From an archaeon (GTDB taxonomy: Archaea; Iainarchaeota; Iainarchaeia; Iainarchaeales; JANQMZ01), in assembly GCA_028279805.1 (NCBI GenBank), contig JANQMZ010000007.1:810001-842000 (forward strand): a DNA stretch of 32,000 nucleotides, given 5' to 3'. This document shows, piece by piece, positions 14,600 through 24,544 of the stretch (the stretch's first letter is position 1; each line of letters starts with the position of its first letter). The notes under the pieces were generated by a model that was not told the DNA's origin, made no database searches, and was given only the letters and a program-made list of their open reading frames with translations. A program made the translations under genes and the position numbers.

Positions 14600-14690
14600 A
14601 CTAAAATAGTTTGTTTGAATATTTTTAATCTTTTACCTGTTTTTAGCCAAAAAAAGCTTTTTTAAGCATTTAATGCTTTTTTTTTGTTGA

Positions 14691-14867
14691 ATGGCTTCAA
14701 ATGTTTCAAAAGAACTTTTAAACGTGTTAGCCTGTCCCAAATGCAAATCAGGTTTAAAGCATGATTCTGCTAAAAAAAGGCTTTTATGCAAGAAATGCTC
14801 AGTTTTTTATGAAATAAAACATGGAATTCCGCTTGCTTTGGAAGACAAAGCAAAAAAAATACCATAA
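14691..14867 (+). CDS. Trm112-like / UPF0434 small zinc-ribbon-like protein
   Basis: At 58 aa it is below the track cutoff. My translation is MASNVSKELLNVLACPKCKSGLKHDSAKKRLLCKKCSVFYEIKHGIPLALEDKAKKIP. The pattern LL..LACP.C...L......L.C..C...Y.I..GIP.L is characteristic of Trm112 family proteins. Confidence 0.65.
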   Translation: MASNVSKELLNVLACPKCKSGLKHDSAKKRLLCKKCSVFYEIKHGIPLALEDKAKKIP

Positions 14868-14967
14868 ATCGTTCAAATTTCACAACACTATGCCTTTAAA
14901 TTCCCTCTGTCACACTATTTACTTATAAAATTCTTATTCTTATGATTAAAATTTTGGGGGTTTTTTT

Positions 14968-15342
14968 ATGACTGCAAAAAAAACAGAAAAATCAGAGAAA
15001 GCATCAGATGATGCGGAAATGGATGAATCAAAGTTACCCTTTCCTCGTGCCACAATTGTTAACATGGTTAGAAAAAATTTGGATCAGAATAAACAAATCA
15101 AAGGCCGTGTTAAAGACGAAATGAACATTTGGCTTGGAAAACTTGTTGAAAAACTTTCCAAAAAAATGAATTCATATCCTTACACTTACGTTGACTACGG
15201 AATGTTTAAAGACGCAATAAGTGTTTATGAACAAATGGAAGAAATTGAGGATGAAAAAGAACGCATAATAAAATACTTAGACAAAATAAAAGCAGACTTG
15301 GAAATGTTAGAAAAAGAAGTTGACAAAAAATTCAAATTGTAA
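14968..15342 (+). CDS. Histone-fold-like protein with N-terminal charged tail and C-terminal coiled-coil extension
   Basis: The core of this 124-aa ORF is LPFPRATIVNMVRKNLDQNKQIKGRVKDEMNIWLGKLVEKLSKKMNSY...YVDYGMFKDAI. It aligns by eye with the histone/NF-Y-type alpha1-L1-alpha2-L2-alpha3 fold. It has a 22-aa acidic/basic N-terminal tail. The C-terminal heptad-like segment is EQMEEIEDEKERIIKYLDKIKADLEMLEKEVDKK. A GGGGG Shine-Dalgarno-like run lies upstream. Confidence 0.5.
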   Translation: MTAKKTEKSEKASDDAEMDESKLPFPRATIVNMVRKNLDQNKQIKGRVKDEMNIWLGKLVEKLSKKMNSYPYTYVDYGMFKDAISVYEQMEEIEDEKERIIKYLDKIKADLEMLEKEVDKKFKL

Positions 15343-15382
15343 AATCAACTTTTTTTTCTCTTCTTTTAATGTGATATTTGTT

Positions 15383-16498
15383 TTACTTATTCAAATGAAC
15401 TATTCTTTCAATTTTAATTCCCTCTTGTTTGGAATTATTTAAAACTTTTTTGGAAACAGGAATTTTGTCAGTCATCATACCACTCACTTTAAAACCGCAG
15501 TCTTTTGCAAGACTACAAAACAGTTTTCCCATATTAATTATTTGTGGACCAGTCACTCTCTTATTTTTAACATCTCCCACAACAACAAATGCATTTCCTC
15601 CGGGTTTCATTACTCTTTTTAATTCAACTAAAGTTTCTTTCATAAATTGCGAATAAACATTTAAAGAACCCGACTCCATTAGTTTTGATTTAACTTCTTT
15701 GTAATCATATCCCAAGAACCAATGCCGAAGCCAATTATCATAAGCATATGTTTGTATATTGAGGTATGGGGGAGAAAAAAACGCCAAATCAACTGTGCAA
15801 TCTTTTAATGAAATATCTCTTGAATCGCTATTTAAAGCACGTCCTTTATATTTTAAGTTGTTGTTAATTAATAGCTCTTCTCCTCTTTGCTTAAGTGCTT
15901 CAATAATATCTCTTCTTGGTCTTTTTAATCCATGCTTTTTTGCATATTTTTTGACATAGGTTGGAGACATAGAATAGGAATGGGAACAACGAAGCGAAAA
16001 GCTTTTTTGTGAATTTCCGTGTAAAAGCCCCAACGCAACCCCTTTTATAAAATTAGCTGATTTTGAGTTGTCTTCCTTTAAAATAGTCTTTAGTTCAATT
16101 AGTCTTTTCAAAGTGGTGGGATTGTAAAAAACTTTTACTTTGGGATCCACATTTTTTATTGATTTTATATAGCCCATTTTGTTTTCAATCTGGGTTAATT
16201 TTTTTTTATAGCTTGACAATTTTATGGGGTTCAATTTAGCATATGTTAAAATATGGGCTTCCGGAGAAACATCATTGCCTATAGATTTTCTATCAAGTAA
16301 TGCTGCTTCTAAGGGCGCAGTTCCCTTTCCCGAAAAAATATCCAGGAAAACATCTCCCTTATTTGAATATTTTTCTATAAAATATCTTGGCATGAGAGGC
16401 GGGAAAGAGCATATTCTAGAACACATTTTGTGTAAAGGATTTATGTCTCTCTTCTTCGATTTCCAGAAACTATTTTCTTCAAGTTTTATATCATACAT
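15383..16498 (-). CDS. DNA methyltransferase (N6-adenine or N4-cytosine class); last gene of the candidate defence operon
   Basis: The 371-aa ORF has the SAM-binding motif I region FPPLMPRYFIEKYSNKGDVFLDIFSGKGTAPLEAALLDRKSIGNDVSPEA at aa 32-81 (the glycine motif FSGKGT is aa 55-60). The catalytic motif IV SPPY is at aa 242-245 (DLAFFSPPYLNIQTY). Motif I therefore precedes motif IV, separated by about 180 aa that could be a target-recognition region. Confidence 0.8.
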   Translation of the reverse strand: MYDIKLEENSFWKSKKRDINPLHKMCSRICSFPPLMPRYFIEKYSNKGDVFLDIFSGKGTAPLEAALLDRKSIGNDVSPEAHILTYAKLNPIKLSSYKKKLTQIENKMGYIKSIKNVDPKVKVFYNPTTLKRLIELKTILKEDNSKSANFIKGVALGLLHGNSQKSFSLRCSHSYSMSPTYVKKYAKKHGLKRPRRDIIEALKQRGEELLINNNLKYKGRALNSDSRDISLKDCTVDLAFFSPPYLNIQTYAYDNWLRHWFLGYDYKEVKSKLMESGSLNVYSQFMKETLVELKRVMKPGGNAFVVVGDVKNKRVTGPQIINMGKLFCSLAKDCGFKVSGMMTDKIPVSKKVLNNSKQEGIKIERIVHLNK

Positions 16499-16510
16499 TT
16501 TTTCGCCACT

Positions 16511-17503
16511 CTAAAATTTAATAGAAAGTTTCTTGGCTAAAGTTTTCATTTCTTTCATCAACTTGGTTATTATCTTTTTTTTCCTTTTATTATTTTTTAT
16601 TTCATCTATTCTTTGTCTGCTAATGGCCTCGATTTTGTCTAAAAAATTCTGTGCTTCACGAATAAAAACATCTGACATCTCTGGTTTATTGTTAAAAACT
16701 ACCTCTTTCGCTTTTCCAAGAGTCCATTTTCCTTCAAAATATTTCTTTTGGGCTTTTTTATCTTTAAGAACTACTCGTGTCAGATCTCTAACATCCCTAG
16801 TTTCAAGATTATCTTCAGTTATTTTTTTAATTAATTTTTTATCTAATTTTTTATCTTTTTTTTTCGCTTTTAAATAGTCAGTTGATTTATTAATCTCATA
16901 ATATTTGGTAAATTCTTTAGGATTAGAAATTTTGTTTTTTACCATAAAGTCAAACGTTTTTATGTAGTCCTGAATCTGTTTTTCAGGATAACGACTAACT
17001 TCTACTAATTCCTTAAAAGAAGCGCCTTCTCGTTTTCTTCTCTTAAACCAGACTGCAAGTTCATATGGCTCCCAATCTTTCTTTTGAATTATATGAACTC
17101 TTCCAAGTAAATAATCGATATCTGGCTGGGAAATTTTTTCTTTTATTACTTGGCATGGCACATTGGACCATTTTGTTTTTTCACTAGAAGTTTTAGCTTT
17201 TCTGTCAAGCTCCTTTAAAATACATAACCTAGTATTTCCCTCTAGCACTTTATTTTTGTAAACAATTAGTGGCTCATTAATTGCACCATCTGTTTCTATC
17301 ACTTCCTTTAGTTTTCTTGTTGGTTCCGAATGTTTTTCCCAAAATAATTCTTCAATTTTTTTTTCAGTCAATGCACCTTTTTCTCTTTCAAGAATAGAAA
17401 TTAATCTAGGATTCTCTTGGTAAAATTTTAGTTTCGATAACGGAACTTCTTTTATTTCTGTTTCAACTTTTTTATTTTTTCCAATTACAAGATATGATGA
17501 CAT
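16511..17503 (-). CDS. ParB N-terminal-domain (ParB/Srx fold) protein, paralog B
   Basis: The 330-aa ORF has VPLSKLKFYQENPRL ... GAINEPLIVYKNKVLEGNTRLCILKEL, matching the ParB-like nuclease/NTPase domain pattern (NPR box, then G-N-x-R-L). It continues with DWEPYELAVWF, RDVRDL and a Lys-rich C-terminal region. It shares these landmarks with the ORF at 19340-20365. Confidence 0.7.
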   Translation of the reverse strand: MSSYLVIGKNKKVETEIKEVPLSKLKFYQENPRLISILEREKGALTEKKIEELFWEKHSEPTRKLKEVIETDGAINEPLIVYKNKVLEGNTRLCILKELDRKAKTSSEKTKWSNVPCQVIKEKISQPDIDYLLGRVHIIQKKDWEPYELAVWFKRRKREGASFKELVEVSRYPEKQIQDYIKTFDFMVKNKISNPKEFTKYYEINKSTDYLKAKKKDKKLDKKLIKKITEDNLETRDVRDLTRVVLKDKKAQKKYFEGKWTLGKAKEVVFNNKPEMSDVFIREAQNFLDKIEAISRQRIDEIKNNKRKKKIITKLMKEMKTLAKKLSIKF

Positions 17504-17506
17504 GGT

Positions 17507-18931
17507 TTACCCCAGAAGTTCAACCAACTCTTCTTTAGATAATAAGTTTCCTTCTTTATAACTCGTAATGTCCCCCTGAATGTATTTTGCTATTTCTTCC
17601 TTCCTTTTGAGTAAATAATCAACATATTCATCAATTGTATCTTTTGCGACAAGTAAGTGAATAAAACAGTTTTTTTTTTGTGAAATTCTATGAATCCTAT
17701 CCTGAGATTGCATAAAATCAACCAAATTAAAATTTCTATCCAAGTATATGGCGTTGCTTGCAGCAGTTAATGTTAGGCCCTCTCTAGCTGCAGCGGGGTT
17801 TGCCAGCAAAATTTTATATTCCGGGTAATTTTGAAATTTTTTAACTGAGGCATTTCTTTTTTCCATAGTCATTTTTCCATAAATCATCACAGGATTAAAT
17901 TTAGAATATCTTTTTCTAAGTATTGAAATGTTTTCAATGAAAGAGGTCCAAATAATAACTTTTTGTTTTTTCTTTGTCAAATTTAAAATTAATTGATCAA
18001 GAGCTTTAAATTTAGCAGGCACTTCATCATAAGCTTTGTCAATCAGATAAGGATTGCTTGTTATTTGAATCAATCTTAAAAGTTTTACAAAAATTTCTTC
18101 TGCTTTTAAAATAATTTCATTTCCGTTCAAGTCTTTTATTTCCAAAAACAATTTTTCTTTTAATCTTTTGTACATTTCCTTTTGATCTTTTTCTAAAATA
18201 ACAGGAACGTTTATTATTTTCTTGCTAGGCAAATCCAATTCAGGAAGTTCTCCTTTGGTTCTACGCAACGATATTTTTTCAATTTTTTCTTTTAAGACTT
18301 TTAGTTTGCTTTGGTTAACTTCTTTTTTCAAATCAAAATCAAACTCTTTTTTAAATTTTTTAAAATCCTTTCCGAACGTTTTTCCATCATCCAAGAAAAA
18401 AAACTGCGCCCACAAGTCTATGGGTTTATTTGCTATGGGAGTTCCGCTAAGTATTATTTTTTTTCCCGGTAAGTTGGCTAATTTAAACAATTGAAGCGTT
18501 ATTTTAGCTTCTGGATTTTTTATTTTGTGAGATTCATCAAGAACAAGAGCCATTTTTCTAATTTTAAGTAACTCTTCAATCATTTTATTTTCTCTTATAA
18601 GAGATTCATAGCCAATAATATAAAAATAAGAAAATCCAAGCCCTTTCCTTTGCCTGGTTTTTCTGTTCCCGGTTATTTCAGTACAAGAGAGATTGCTATG
18701 TTTTTCTATTTCCTCTAACCAATTTTTAATTAATGTTTTTTTACATACAACTATTGCGCCATTTAGTTTTTTTTCTGCAAAGTTTTTACAAAGTGCATCA
18801 ATAACAATTTTTGTTTTTCCTAGTCCCTGTTCATCAAAAAGAGATACAACATCCTCTTTTTCAACGAAATCAATTGCAATGCTTTGATGCGCAAAAGGAT
18901 TTGTTTTAATTTTAAATTTATTTTTTTTCAT
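17507..18931 (-). CDS. SNF2-family (Rad54-like) DNA-dependent ATPase/translocase
   Basis: The full motif set is present: PFAHQ (Q), DEQGLGKT (I), DESHKIKN (II), LSGTPIAN (III), VIIWTSF (IV), AAREGLTLT (V) and QSQDRIHRISQKK (VI). At 474 aa it is a minimal SNF2 core with no accessory domains. Confidence 0.9.
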   Translation of the reverse strand: MKKNKFKIKTNPFAHQSIAIDFVEKEDVVSLFDEQGLGKTKIVIDALCKNFAEKKLNGAIVVCKKTLIKNWLEEIEKHSNLSCTEITGNRKTRQRKGLGFSYFYIIGYESLIRENKMIEELLKIRKMALVLDESHKIKNPEAKITLQLFKLANLPGKKIILSGTPIANKPIDLWAQFFFLDDGKTFGKDFKKFKKEFDFDLKKEVNQSKLKVLKEKIEKISLRRTKGELPELDLPSKKIINVPVILEKDQKEMYKRLKEKLFLEIKDLNGNEIILKAEEIFVKLLRLIQITSNPYLIDKAYDEVPAKFKALDQLILNLTKKKQKVIIWTSFIENISILRKRYSKFNPVMIYGKMTMEKRNASVKKFQNYPEYKILLANPAAAREGLTLTAASNAIYLDRNFNLVDFMQSQDRIHRISQKKNCFIHLLVAKDTIDEYVDYLLKRKEEIAKYIQGDITSYKEGNLLSKEELVELLG

Positions 18932-19340
18932 TTGGTAGCAACCTGTCTGGAATTTTTAATATGTCTATGTTTTTTCTATCAAGCAAACCCTGCTGGCTTA
19001 ATATTTTTTCCAATTTTTTTTCACAAGATAATGGTATGCCCACTATTAGCCTTATTGATTCACTGTCATTAATTTTTGATTTTGAAAAGTCCAAAAGCTG
19101 CTCTTTTGTTCTTTTACTTGAAAGATCTTTTGAGGATTTAGCTTCCCCAATTATTAAATTTCCAGACTCGGGATCAACACCTACCACATCTGGTCGATGT
19201 CTAACTATTTTTGGAGGCATGTATAATTTCAAATCTGAAACGTCTTTTGGGTTGTCATCAAAGCAAACTACGTGATATCCCTCATTTCTTATCTTTTTTG
19301 CGAGAAGGGTTGCTATAATTCTGTGAGTATTAGACGGCAT
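18918..19340 (-). CDS. Small PD-(D/E)xK-like nuclease (predicted)
   Basis: The 140-aa ORF has RHRPDVVGVDPESGNLIIGEAKSS, giving a D(51)...E(66)-x-K(68) arrangement on predicted beta strands, as in restriction-endonuclease-fold proteins. Its start shares one base with the stop of the upstream ParB-like gene (TAATG). Its 3' end overlaps the SNF2 start by 14 nt. Confidence 0.5.
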   Translation of the reverse strand: MPSNTHRIIATLLAKKIRNEGYHVVCFDDNPKDVSDLKLYMPPKIVRHRPDVVGVDPESGNLIIGEAKSSKDLSSKRTKEQLLDFSKSKINDSESIRLIVGIPLSCEKKLEKILSQQGLLDRKNIDILKIPDRLLPNEKK

Positions 19341-20365
19341 TATTCATCATCCAGAATTGAATTTATTTCCTCTTTAAGTTCATTTAACAGTTTTTTTTTT
19401 GCATTATTTTGGCCTGACTTTATTTCTTCCTCTTCTTTATTTGACATTTTTCTTAATCCAATTAAAACCATAGATATCCGATCAAACAATGTGGAAGAAT
19501 ACTTAGGTTCAATAGTGCTTAGTTTTTCAATTGCAATGTCATAATTTCTTTCTAGAAATAACTTTCTACAATCAGAATTCTCAAAAATTTTATCCAATTT
19601 TCTAACATCCCGAACATTAAGGAATTTGTCAATTCCAACCCAATCACAAAAATCAGCGTCTGTAAAATTCAAATTTTGCATTTGCTGTTTTAAATTTTTG
19701 TTCTTTAAATATTCCACAAAATACGTAAACTTATGTACGAAATCCTTCTTGTTTCCATATTTTTTCTTGAATTGTGTCGACATTAATTTGAATGCATCAA
19801 TATCTTGCTTAATGCTACTTTTGTTTAATTTTGTCCTTAAAGAAAGGGTCTCCAAAGAAATTTTGTGGTCCTCATGTAAAGCATACAAATATTTGGCTTT
19901 TTCATAAGTGTCCCATTCATTTGTTCCATTCAAATGGGCAGTCAATCTAATGAAATCTTTGCCTTCGTCATCTAAATCAGCGGAAAACACTACACATTTT
20001 ATTTTTTTGAAATTTTTTTCTTCAGGATATTCTCCACTTAACTGTTTATAAATAAGCAATCTGGTGTTTCCTTCAATTACAATATAGTTTTTTTTTGGAA
20101 GTTGTTGTACCCATATATCGTACAACGCTCCCTTGTTATCTTTGATTGAAGCTTTTAGGTCATAGTAATAAGAATTTCTTTTTAACGCATATGCTATTTG
20201 ACCCTGGGTCATTTTTTCTTTTTCTTCCTCAAAAGTGTCTTTAGCTAGAGATATTCTTGGATTTTCAACGTCAAACATAATTTTTTCTATTTCAATTTCT
20301 TGTCTTTTGACAGGGGTTTTTCTTCTATTAATAATGACGCTGTCGGGATAAACAGGCGAGTTCAT
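19340..20365 (-). CDS. ParB N-terminal-domain (ParB/Srx fold) protein, paralog A; first gene of the candidate defence operon
   Basis: The 341-aa ORF has IEIEKIMFDVENPRISL ... KNYIVIEGNTRLLIYKQL, followed by NEWDTYEKAKYLY and RDVRKLDKI. The order of landmarks is the same as in 16511-17503, but the two sequences are highly diverged. Confidence 0.7.
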   Translation of the reverse strand: MNSPVYPDSVIINRRKTPVKRQEIEIEKIMFDVENPRISLAKDTFEEEKEKMTQGQIAYALKRNSYYYDLKASIKDNKGALYDIWVQQLPKKNYIVIEGNTRLLIYKQLSGEYPEEKNFKKIKCVVFSADLDDEGKDFIRLTAHLNGTNEWDTYEKAKYLYALHEDHKISLETLSLRTKLNKSSIKQDIDAFKLMSTQFKKKYGNKKDFVHKFTYFVEYLKNKNLKQQMQNLNFTDADFCDWVGIDKFLNVRDVRKLDKIFENSDCRKLFLERNYDIAIEKLSTIEPKYSSTLFDRISMVLIGLRKMSNKEEEEIKSGQNNAKKKLLNELKEEINSILDDE

Positions 20366-20503
20366 TTTATTTCACATTTTTAAATTTTTTTTTGTATTGT
20401 TATAATTATATAATTAAAAACAAAATTAATTTAACACTTTACTGTGAACTATGAAATCGTATATGCTTATTTTTTGTCAAAAGTTTAGCGAAATATTTTT
20501 TTT

Positions 20504-21100
20504 TCAATATAATATTTGTTTTACTTTTTTTACAATTGATGAATGTTTGCTGTAAAACAAAAAACTCATAATTTGCCCCATGTTGCCTGTTTTTTTTCTG
20601 ATTGAACTTTTTTCAAAATCAATAATAACCGGCAAATTCTTCCTTACAATAATGTTTCTGCCCCGCCTTGCAAGCTGCCCATGGCTTAATCCTAGTGAAT
20701 CCATTAAACTTATTTGCATAAACAATTCGTTTAACAAATTCATAAACTTTTTTTTTGAAGGTTTATCAAACAACCATTTGTCCAAAGTTTTTCCTTTAAC
20801 AAATTCCATTAAAACGCATTTGTTTTGTGAATCAAATTTTTTCAGTTTTGGCCCGATGCCAACAGAATTTGCCAGCTTTAAATGTTTAACCTCTTTTTCC
20901 AGCATTTGAATTCTGCGTGATTTGTCTTTTTCAATTTTTAATGCAAACTTTTTTTCACGCAATTTAACCAGGTAAATATTTGAAGAATGTCCTTTGGCCA
21001 AAAATTTAACCATTTTAAGCTTGTTTTTTTTCAAAAAATTCTGCAATCTGAATTCTTCTGATTTCATTAAAATTACCATTTTTGATGATTGTACTGGCAT
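20504..21100 (-). CDS. Atypical Ser/Thr protein kinase (RIO/Bud32-like, archaeal COG2112-type)
   Basis: The ORF has LAKGHSSNIYLV (a Gly-rich-loop equivalent) and FALKIEK (the VAIK-like Lys). It also has LSHGQLARRGRNIIV (a catalytic-loop variant) and IIDFEKS (DFG-like). The true start may be one of the internal Met codons (MVILMKSEEF). Confidence 0.6.
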   Translation of the reverse strand: MPVQSSKMVILMKSEEFRLQNFLKKNKLKMVKFLAKGHSSNIYLVKLREKKFALKIEKDKSRRIQMLEKEVKHLKLANSVGIGPKLKKFDSQNKCVLMEFVKGKTLDKWLFDKPSKKKFMNLLNELFMQISLMDSLGLSHGQLARRGRNIIVRKNLPVIIDFEKSSIRKKTGNMGQIMSFLFYSKHSSIVKKVKQILY

Positions 21101-21199
21101 TTACACAAGCTTTTTAAATCTTTTTTAATGAAAATTAGGTTATAAAGCAATAAAAATGCTATTTTTAAAAATTTACAAATTTTTGAGGTGTAATTGTTA

Positions 21200-22843
21200 A
21201 TGGCTGAACAAGATGCAAACAGGCAAATTGTATTTTTAAGTGAGGGTTCCAAAAGAACAAGGGGGAGAGAAGCACAGCAAATTAATATTTTGATTGCAAG
21301 GGCGATCGCTGAAGCTGTAAAAAGCACTTTGGGTCCCAAAGGAATGGACAAAATGATTGTTGATGACCTGGGTGACATAATTATTTCAAATGACGGTGCA
21401 ACAATTTTGGATGAAATGAGCATTGACCATCCGGTTGGAAAAATGCTTGTAGATGTTGCAAAAACTCAGGAAGCAGAGGTGGGTGATGGCACCACGACAG
21501 CTGTTGTTTTAGCCGGAGGCTTGCTGGAAAAAGCTGAAAAATTATTGGATGATGAAATTCATCCGAGCATTATAATTAAAGGTTACAGGCATGCAACAAA
21601 AAAAGCAATTGAAATTTTAAACAAAATTTCAGATTCGGTTAATGTTAATGATAAAAAAATGTTAACACAAATTGCAATGACTTCAATGACAGGCAAATCA
21701 GCTGAAGCTGAAATGAAACTGGCTTCAATGGTTGTTGACTCTGTTTTGGCTGTAATGGAAGAAGATAATGGCAGAATTGTTATTGACAAAGACATGATTA
21801 AAATTGAAACAAAGCAAGGTGCGTCTTTGGCAAAAACTGAAATGATTAACGGCATTGTTATTGACAAAGAAGTTGTTCATTCAGGAATGCCAAAACATGT
21901 TAAAAATGCAAAAATTGCATTGGTTGATGCTGCCTTGGAAATAAAGGAAACGGAAACGGATGCGGAAATAAGAATTTCTGACCCGGAACAATTGCAGGCT
22001 TTTTTGGATAAAGAAGAATCTTTATTGAAAGAAATGGTTGAAAATGTTTCAAAATCCGGTGCAAACGTTTTAATGTGCCAGAAAGGAATTGATGATTTGG
22101 CTCAGCATTTTTTGTCAAAAAACGGAATTCTTGCAATTCGCAGGGTTAAAAAAAGTGACATGGAAAAAATTGCAAAAGCAACAGGTGCAAGCATTGTTAC
22201 AAGACTTAGTGACATTTCAAAAACAGATTTGGGGCAAGCAAAAGATGTTTCAGAAAAAAAAATAGGAGACGAAGAAATGCTGTTTATTGAAGGCTGCAAA
22301 AACCCAAAATCTGTTACAATTTTGGTTCGAGGCGGTTCACAGCACGTTGTAGAAGAAGCCGAAAGGTCAATTGATGATGCTTTGGGCACAGTTTCAAGCG
22401 TATTAAGAGACAAAAAATCTGTTTCAGGCGGAGGCAGCACCGAAATTGAACTGGCAATGCAGTTAAGAAAATATGCAACAAGTGTCGGAGGCAGAGAACA
22501 GTTAGCAATAGAAGCATTTGCTGAAACACTTGAAGTAATTCCAAGAACTTTAGCTGAAACAGCAGGAAGAAATCCTTTGGATACAATTGTTGACTTAAAA
22601 TCAAAACACAAAGGAGAAAAAGGCAAATACATCGGAGTAAACGTTTATTCCGGAAAACTAGAGGACATGAAAAAAGAACATGTCATTGAACCTTTAAGCG
22701 TTAAAACCCAGGCAATAACTTCAGCCTCAGAAGTAGCTGAAATGGTTCTAAGAATTGATGACATAATTAAAGGAACCGGAAGCAAAGCACCTCCGATGGG
22801 ACCAGAAGGAATGCCACCTGGAATGCCTCCAATGGGAATGTAA
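21200..22843 (+). CDS. ths: Thermosome subunit (group II chaperonin)
   Basis: The sequence [22 protein letters not shown] and VSGGGSTE, plus the C-terminal Gly/Met/Pro tail ([11 protein letters not shown]), identify a group II chaperonin. I prefer the ATG at 21200, with GAGGTG at 21185-21190. The track start at 21194 is a TTG. Confidence 0.95.
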
Positions 22844-24470: not shown

Positions 24471-24544
24471 GGGCACATAGCTCAGTCTGGTAGAGTGGTA
24501 GTCTTATACACTATCGGTCGGGGGTTCAAATCCTCCTGTGCCCA
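24471..24544 (+). tRNA. tRNA-Ile, anticodon UAU
   Basis: I folded the cloverleaf by hand. The acceptor is GGGCACA/TGTGCCC. The D arm is GCTC-AGTCTGGTA-GAGT. The anticodon arm is GTAGT-CT[TAT]AC-ACTAT. The variable loop is CGGTC, the T arm is GGGGG-TTCAAAT-CCTCC, and the discriminator is A. There is no encoded CCA and no intron. Confidence 0.9.

Follow-up and report, generated by a model that had tools for sequence, protein, structure and literature searches.

A ParB-nuclease-SNF2-ParB gene core beside interchangeable DNA-modifying enzymes: a probable restriction-modification-like immune system in an archaeal DNA window and in bacteria

The closest validated relative of the locus described here, and the system most like it in the pairing of a ParB-like protein with a methyltransferase, is PD-lambda-5. 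It consists of a protein with a ParB-like N-terminal domain and a methyltransferase, protects E. coli and was termed a compacted RM+Abi system by its authors, for whom cloning required an mrr-deleted host (Vassallo et al. 2022, PMC9519451). In architecture the nearest described systems are Dpd, Dnd and Ssp, in which a DNA-modifying enzyme (the writer) and a restriction part are combined in modular fashion with a ParB-superfamily protein (DpdB, DndB, or SspE with its DUF262 domain); ParB-superfamily ATPases assist the DNA-modifying enzymes of Dpd and Dnd (PMC10164549, PMC10853773). The present report concerns a five-gene cassette at positions 15383-20365, on the minus strand, of a 32,000-nucleotide stretch of archaeal DNA (contig JANQMZ010000007.1), referred to below as the window. 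Its products are two ParB-like proteins (ParB1 and ParB2), a small protein of nuclease fold, an SNF2-family motor and a DNA methyltransferase. The first four genes form a core that recurs in more than 20 bacterial phyla, always beside a DNA-modifying enzyme, and on this ground it is probably an unnamed restriction-modification-like immune system.

The listing of open reading frames (ORFs) with their translations resolved the block into five tightly packed genes, all on the minus strand. ParB1 (19340..20365; 341 amino acids, aa) has a ParB/Noc/KorB-like N-terminal NTPase-type domain, a helix-turn-helix (HTH) and a helical C-terminal domain. It is followed by a small stand-alone PD-(D/E)xK nuclease of the RecB/Cas4-like type (18918..19340; 140 aa), a minimal SNF2-family double-stranded DNA translocase with the full motif set and without accessory domains (17507..18931; 474 aa), ParB2, a paralogue of ParB1 along its full length (16511..17503; 330 aa), and a PF01555 DNA methyltransferase (15383..16498; 371 aa), which occupies the variable writer slot of the cassette. 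ParB1 and the nuclease gene share a 1-nt overlap, read as gaaTAATGccg, and the ORF coordinates give a 14-nt overlap between the nuclease and SNF2 genes, a 3-nt gap between SNF2 and ParB2 and a 12-nt gap between ParB2 and the methyltransferase. A preliminary description of this DNA had reported exactly these five genes, coordinates and junctions, and the motifs that it listed are all present in the translations: FSGKGT and SPPY, DEQGLGKT, DESHKIKN and QSQDRIHRISQKK, GNTR in both ParB-like proteins, and PD...GEAK in the 140-aa protein. Its domain assignments for the five products were upheld by Pfam, by AlphaFold2 (AF2) models searched with Foldseek and by hhalign. To judge from the translations, all five window proteins keep their catalytic residues intact.

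Upstream of ParB1 lies an A/T-rich intergenic leader of 138 nt (20366..20503, minus strand), whose TATA-like runs (ttttaattatataattataa), about 35-55 nt ahead of the ParB1 ATG, are presumed to be the archaeal promoter of the operon. A bacterial-type promoter scan of this archaeal DNA was uninformative (24 sites against 26 expected), as was a terminator scan. The G+C content of the window is about 32%, and that of the cassette slightly lower (29-31%).

Relatives were gathered by a search for ParB1 homologues and by a scan of one genome per species, which revealed 198 relatives among 185,579 species genomes; the core loci examined were 80 kept from the species scan and some fetched later. The order ParB1-nuclease-SNF2-ParB2, with overlapping or near-touching genes, is conserved in 73 other non-redundant loci. 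These span more than 20 bacterial phyla, among them Chloroflexota, the candidate phyla radiation (CPR), Bacillota, Bacteroidota, Pseudomonadota, Desulfobacterota, Verrucomicrobiota, Spirochaetota, Thermotogota and Nitrospirota. Among the carriers in culture are Inquilinus limosus, Mesorhizobium and two with a radical-SAM-type operon, Clostridium paridis and Sphaerochaeta pleomorpha (CP003155.1, around 2,695,300-2,701,100 and SpiGrapes_2458), and in RefSeq the cassette is labelled 'ParB N-terminal domain-containing / hypothetical / DEAD-DEAH helicase / hypothetical'. Where the preliminary description had proposed a five-gene unit, the four-gene core is thus borne out by its co-occurrence at these 73 loci, whereas the set of five was found nowhere else. 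If a family is defined as ParB1-nuclease-SNF2-ParB2 plus a writer, the window locus belongs to it.

The neighbouring gene specifies a radical-SAM protein with an invariant CxxxCxxC motif at 62 of the 73 loci, typically of about 480 aa (range about 380-680 aa); examples are L003:13936-15381, L047:13958-15601 and L036:14998-16698 (numbers with L denote loci of this collection), with 59 others. This partner shows only sub-threshold matches to Radical_SAM, B12-binding, MiaB/RimO and rSAM_ladder_B12 profiles, the weak B12-binding-like domain being N-terminal. It belongs to no PADLOC or NCBIfam family, and the best match in a profile search of the PDB had an E-value of 0.009. An attempt to tie it to a characterised enzyme failed, all profile matches being sub-threshold. 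It is a candidate source of a new DNA modification. A six-frame translation of the window contains no homologue of this gene.

The 11 loci without a radical-SAM gene include 10 with DNA methyltransferases beside the core. At seven, from metagenome-assembled genomes of Bacillota (L042, L049, L054, L057 and L065, with the related L063 and L068), the core sits between dpnM plus dpnA-type methyltransferases and a DpnII endonuclease; an HTH-Dam gene is found at two loci from Saccharibacteria; and one metagenomic locus, which holds the closest relative of the window nuclease, has a divergent PF01555 methyltransferase. The eleventh sequence ends 921 bases past ParB2 and is not assessable. A candidate DNA-modifying enzyme therefore adjoins the core at all assessable loci (72/72). 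In L003, L005, L006, L008, L010 and L011, the closest relatives, the radical-SAM gene stands directly after ParB2, and the window methyltransferase fills this same slot. One or two GHKL (HATPase_c_3) ATPases accompany the core in 27 loci, and a DGQHR (DndB/DpdB-like) protein is also present in alphaproteobacterial ones. There the radical-SAM, DGQHR and GHKL ATPase genes form a three-gene block (L036:13986-18275; L088:12961-17238, on a Roseomonas plasmid; L069; L077) that recalls a Dnd/Dpd-style modification module. The earlier remark that exotic modification enzymes are absent is accordingly true of the window and does not extend to its relatives, which carry the radical-SAM protein and sometimes DGQHR.

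The gene set as a whole is matched by no PADLOC, NCBIfam or Pfam model, and the literature (open-access papers and bioRxiv) yielded no account of the cassette. The claim that no described system has this composition stands against these profiles, which place the full set in none, and within the reach of these libraries the system has no prior description. The hallmark genes reported missing are indeed not among the five proteins (no HsdS/HsdM, DrmA/B/C or PglZ/BrxC). The named systems are set apart because their matches involve either the helicase core in general or the N-terminal part of the ParBs, and every one falls well short of the NCBIfam cut-offs. For Type I/III restriction-modification, neither HsdS, HsdM N6_Mtase nor HSDR_N was found among the five proteins, and ResIII gave only a generic SF2 match (2.9e-7). 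For DISARM, PADLOC detected only partial DrmD matches to the SNF2 protein and no DrmA, DrmB or DrmC among the five, and the NCBIfam DrmD model scored 35.9 bits against a cut-off of 610. For BREX, PADLOC revealed no PglZ or BrxC, with weak matches to PglX (3.8e-8) and to the helicase domain of BrxH. The SNF2 protein matches PADLOC ZorD (2.5e-54) and DpdE (1.5e-44) through the helicase region only. The ZorD match spans profile positions 467-884, the NCBIfam ZorD model gives 83.7 bits against a cut-off of 1500, and no ZorABC was found in the five proteins or was recognisable in window ORFs of at least 100 aa, as Zorya type I would have. The NCBIfam DpdE model gives 25 bits against a cut-off of 500, and no DpdA, DpdB or DpdC occurs among the window proteins.

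Likenesses to these systems are nevertheless instructive. As in PD-lambda-5, a ParB-like protein is coupled to a DNA methyltransferase, and PD-Lambda-5_A matches ParB1, bacterial relatives of ParB2 and solo ParBs (see below) at E-values of 1e-5 to 1e-7, over the first ~90 of ~450 profile positions; for ParB1 the match lies at 4-89 of 449 only (1.9e-6). Unlike the cassette, PD-lambda-5 has two genes, no SNF2 protein and no separate nuclease. PD-Lambda-5_B is not among the 25 best PADLOC matches of the window methyltransferase; it is matched by the D12 (Dam-class) methyltransferase of a related locus, which suggests that the B protein is Dam-like, the window enzyme being of the PF01555 type instead. 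PDC-M38, an unpublished PADLOC candidate (PDLC04607) of which no mention was found in the literature, resembles the cassette in that the N-terminal ~230 positions of PDC-M38A match the ParBs (ParB1, 3e-12; with ParB2 relatives and solo ParBs, 3e-12 to 2.6e-22), but the profile has 715 positions and only about a third is matched, the match being confined to the ParB N-terminus. With Dpd, Dnd and Ssp the cassette shares the modular writer-plus-restriction plan and a ParB-superfamily protein, with the restriction arm of Dpd it shares SNF2 helicases (DpdE, DpdJ), and in some relatives DGQHR proteins stand beside the radical-SAM gene. It differs in that the window is without TGT/DpdA, DndACDE, SspABCD and sulfur or deazapurine genes, and in that its ParBs are structurally closest to the HTH-containing ParB/Noc/KorB type. 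Zorya ZorD, a fusion with an Mrr-like nuclease, likewise couples an SNF2 ATPase to a PD-(D/E)xK-type nuclease, and DISARM, whose SNF2 helicase is DrmD, also links SNF2 to a methyltransferase, but ZorABC and DrmABC are absent from the window and the nuclease here is a separate 140-aa protein.

Sequence searches of solved structures with ParB1, ParB2 and the nuclease returned nothing useful and a fold search was needed instead. The AF2 model of ParB1 (pLDDT 87.9) matched ParB-CTPgS, Noc and KorB over ~250 columns spanning the N-terminal domain and HTH (Foldseek probability 1.00, E 2e-6 to 1e-4). ParB1 has no Pfam match, and PF02195 is reached by neither window ParB protein, although it is precomputed for many ParB1 homologues. 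Alignment of the ParB1 family revealed the invariant residues N35-P-R37, E98-G-N-x-R102, H144, G147, W151 and R255. ParB2 shows 25% identity to ParB1 (BLASTP, E 6e-9), and the two family profiles align over 329 columns (hhalign probability 100%, E 2.8e-67); NPR, EGN(T/S)R and H..G..W are invariant in both families alike. The ParB2 family profile reaches H. pylori ParB (4umk, 3.6e-4). The window ParB2 itself has no PADLOC match, while its bacterial relatives do match the N-terminal parts of PDC-M38A and PD-Lambda-5_A. The fold, the HTH and GNTR, read as a GxxR motif, place the proteins in the ParB/Noc/KorB branch of the ParB/Srx superfamily. Like the canonical CTP clamps of this branch they have the N-terminal-domain plus HTH fold, an NPR-type box I and a GxxR box II; unlike them they have no ParA partner, GNTR in place of GERR and xH..G..W in place of ENLQR, and the two paralogues share an operon with a nuclease and a motor. 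Together ParB1 and ParB2 would bind or clamp DNA as an NTP-gated pair, perhaps in the form of a heterodimer.

The SNF2 protein is an SNF2-family ATPase with GLGKT (Walker A) and DESH in its translation; it matches PF00176 (2.3e-39; 135.7 bits, cut-off 24.9) and PF00271, Helicase_C (4e-17; 62.9 bits, cut-off 23.5). Its nearest solved relative is the Sulfolobus SNF2/Rad54 core (1z63, 2.3e-46). Among PHROGs the best match is phrog_62 (6.8e-99), a 1881-position phage 'DNA helicase' profile, which we take to be that of the polyvalent ParB-methyltransferase-SNF2 proteins.

The 140-aa protein matches nothing in the Pfam, NCBIfam, PADLOC and PHROG profile libraries. A single-sequence search gave only two proteins, and a profile built from locus-derived orthologues was required to collect its family, which comprises 973 representatives at 50% clustering, nearly all of 130-145 aa. 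Across 50 homologues P50 D51, G65 E66 A67 K68 and Q81 are invariant, and the family also keeps D72 and an aromatic residue at 85 (Q81-x3-F85 in the window). The AF2 model (pLDDT 86.6) has an alpha-beta-beta-beta-alpha-beta core, and its top PDB folds (MunI, XisH, HindIII, YaeQ, BstEII, Can2 and XPF) are all of the restriction-endonuclease type. The invariant P50-D51 and E66-A-K68, together with the core topology of the model, assign the protein to the PD-(D/E)xK superfamily, which is defined by D at beta2 and (D/E)xK at beta3. The only clear fusion in the family is P0302 (432 aa), with the nuclease domain at residues 333-428; that it might be a ParB fusion was rejected, its N-terminal region being unrelated and not ParB-like.

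The methyltransferase is a member of the N6_N4 DNA methyltransferase family (PF01555, 2.4e-19; 70.6 bits, cut-off 26.7, in two stretches) and contains FSGKGT and SPPY. It is permuted relative to the Pfam model, motif I (FSGKGT) being N-terminal and motif IV (SPPY) C-terminal. The PADLOC model MTase_II (PDLC03325) covers it at full length (2.7e-51). Its best solved relatives are N4-cytosine methyltransferases, at a weak 1e-5, and its predicted target may be either N4-cytosine or N6-adenine. No homologue was found in ~80 related core loci. Four metagenomic homologues have 48-52% identity: the one in L096 has a solo ParB1-family gene directly downstream (27% identity to ParB1, E 5e-34), and the other three, two of them on very short contigs, are without an adjoining ParB. 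In L100 a further homologue (47% identity) is likewise directly upstream of a solo ParB1-family gene. The two pairs (L096:7941-10175; L100:6781-8999; methyltransferases at 47-48% identity to that of the window) lie in islands where restriction-modification genes of Type I or Type IIG are also found, along with an AbiEii-like gene and an integrase or transposase, and the solo ParBs also match the N-terminal parts of PDC-M38A and PD-Lambda-5_A. This methyltransferase family is linked to this ParB family independently of the core, and the pair may be a two-gene PD-lambda-5-like unit.

A 31-bp imperfect direct repeat is present at both ends of the five-gene block. The left copy (15361..15391) overlaps the methyltransferase stop codon, and the right copy (20499..20529) overlaps the last codons and stop of a gene assigned as a RIO kinase by its RIO domain; the copies match at 26 of 31 positions with the exact core ATATTTGTTTTACTT, and no other pair of 31-mers in 14600-21300 reaches 26/31. 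The repeat duplicates the 3' end of the RIO-kinase gene: that end reads …VKQILY*, and the left copy, on the minus strand and in the same frame, reads VKQISH*. Such a pattern is left when an element integrates into a gene's 3' end and brings its own substitute for that end, and it suggests site-specific insertion; no integrase is present in the cassette. Since the repeat brackets all five genes, core and methyltransferase belong to one acquired segment of 5.1 kb. The cassette thus looks like a self-contained, horizontally acquired insert of 5.1 kb, in line with the compact accessory unit proposed earlier.

Elsewhere the core has neighbours typical of defence islands, which accords with the accessory, defence-type setting first proposed: BglII restriction-modification genes, SLFN/NB-ARC, Fic, GIY-YIG, Cas4-like, MazG and nSTAND genes. 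A sample of 146 immediate neighbours, taken without a control set, contained 18 GHKL ATPases and 12 DNA methyltransferases, and the remainder includes DpnII, AbiEii-type ATPases, PIN_8, ThsB-TIR and an SLFN helicase. The core was found on 7 of 72,556 plasmids, all of them large rhizobial or Roseomonas replicons, and in 7 of 2.9 million viral contigs, so that the partition module of plasmids or viruses that the preliminary description had named as its refuting case was not seen. Phage genomes gave only weak partial matches, in P2-like phages, presumably at the P2 defence hotspot.

On balance the cassette is, at somewhat better than even chances, a modular immune system organised along restriction-modification lines, in which one modification enzyme can be exchanged for another. 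The constant four-gene core would be the reader and effector and the writer would be interchangeable: a PF01555 methyltransferase in the archaeon, a radical-SAM protein in most bacteria and a Dam or DpnA-type methyltransferase in some. In the proposed scheme the writer would mark host DNA, the ParB pair would load on DNA in a nucleotide-dependent manner and sense whether the mark is present, the SNF2 motor would use ATP to translocate or remodel the complex, and the small PD-(D/E)xK nuclease would cut unmarked incoming DNA. Several points weigh against this account. What is observed is gene content, folds, motifs, the strict synteny of the core, its obligatory adjoining modifier, island context and the insertion signature; every biochemical activity, the heterodimer, the targeting of unmodified DNA and the anti-virus phenotype are inferred. 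The CTP-binding motifs GERR and ENLQR are altered in both ParBs, and nucleotide binding is therefore putative. The fold matches of the nuclease to solved structures are weak (E 0.02-0.3), and the N-terminal Glu kept by 85-90% of its family is missing in the window protein and its closest relatives. No other core locus in the sample has the window methyltransferase, and its coupling to the core therefore rests on analogy and on position, namely the 12-nt gap and its place inside the repeat-bounded insert. The DpnII-type loci already hold a complete Type II system, of which the core could be an independent neighbour, and the defence-island enrichment was counted without a control set.

There is a different explanation, which we regard as unlikely: the four genes would be a stand-alone defence, indifferent to modification or acting in a Type IV-like manner against modified DNA, that merely clusters with writers, and the window methyltransferase would be an orphan or half of a separate ParB-methyltransferase unit. 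Defence genes do cluster in general, the kind of writer varies between loci, seven loci have the core within a DpnII operon that is complete without it, and the same methyltransferase family pairs elsewhere with a solo ParB in the absence of SNF2 or nuclease. Yet the writer is immediately adjacent in 72/72 assessable loci, usually on the same strand and often overlapping, which is tighter than co-location within an island; the radical-SAM family, weakly related to known families, tracks the core across phyla; and under Type IV logic a linked writer would be self-toxic unless it wrote a different mark.

Two further explanations appear improbable, to about the same degree. The cassette might serve a mobile element as an establishment, anti-restriction or partition-type module, after the manner of the polyvalent proteins. 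The phrog_62 match of the SNF2 protein (6.8e-99) points this way, as do the integrases, resolvase, AEP primase or Bro/RhuM genes beside some loci and the inserted look of the window cassette itself; it is opposed by the rarity of the core on plasmids (7/72,556) and viral contigs (7 of 2.9 million), by the weak and partial nature of the phage matches, which are P2-like, by the lack of ParA, replication or transfer genes in the cassette, and by the conserved active site of the nuclease. Alternatively, the genes might make up a pathway of DNA modification or epigenetic control that lacks any restriction arm: the ParBs and SNF2 protein would bring the writer to DNA, in the way that DpdA is helped by DpdB, and the nuclease-fold protein would give access to bases by nicking or binding the DNA. 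The assistance given by ParB-superfamily ATPases in Dpd and Dnd (PMC10164549, PMC10853773) is a precedent, and in alphaproteobacterial loci the radical-SAM gene is found together with DGQHR proteins. Against this, ordinary methyltransferases need no such help and the catalytic triad of the nuclease is invariant; moreover, the core is constant though its writers are chemically unrelated (two classes of SAM methyltransferase and a radical-SAM protein), as would be expected of a reader/effector more than of machinery dedicated to delivery.

Other features of the window concern its host. The DNA is archaeal, since its ORFs include a thermosome, Alba, Sec61-beta, a RIO kinase and a tRNA intron endonuclease. 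The nearest solved structures to the thermosome are the group II chaperonin 3kfb and the thermosome subunits 1q3r and 1a6d, which we take to be from Methanococcus, Thermococcus and Thermoplasma, respectively. All window proteins looked up, including the thermosome, Alba and an aconitase, are singletons at 90% identity, and the host lineage is therefore a poorly sampled archaeal one. The flanking gene at 14968-15342 (plus strand, 124 aa), previously taken for a histone-fold gene, has no Pfam match at E-values up to 0.01, and that assignment was not sustained. A tRNA-Ile with anticodon TAT (UAU) is present at 24471-24544 (plus strand); AUA is decoded in most archaea through a modified CAU anticodon, and tRNA-Ile UAU is uncommon.

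A broader proposal can be offered only tentatively: that Bacteria and Archaea share an unnamed family of modification-based immune systems in which NTP-gated ParB clamps, an SNF2 motor and a nuclease read the marks of interchangeable writers, the commonest being a radical-SAM protein with an apparent B12-binding-like domain that would install a new DNA modification. Were the proposed immune function true, a widespread immune system would be added to those known: besides this archaeon it would take in more than 20 bacterial phyla, with no fewer than 198 relatives at species level and some 970 clusters of the nuclease at 50% identity. The ParB clamp fold would have gained a new use, coupled to an SNF2 motor and a separate nuclease. 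The loci would also represent a natural writer-swap experiment, in which a SAM methyltransferase and a radical-SAM enzyme serve the same reader core, and the radical-SAM partner points to what may be a new DNA modification. With the archaeal version compact at five genes and with bacterial carriers in culture, the system is directly testable.

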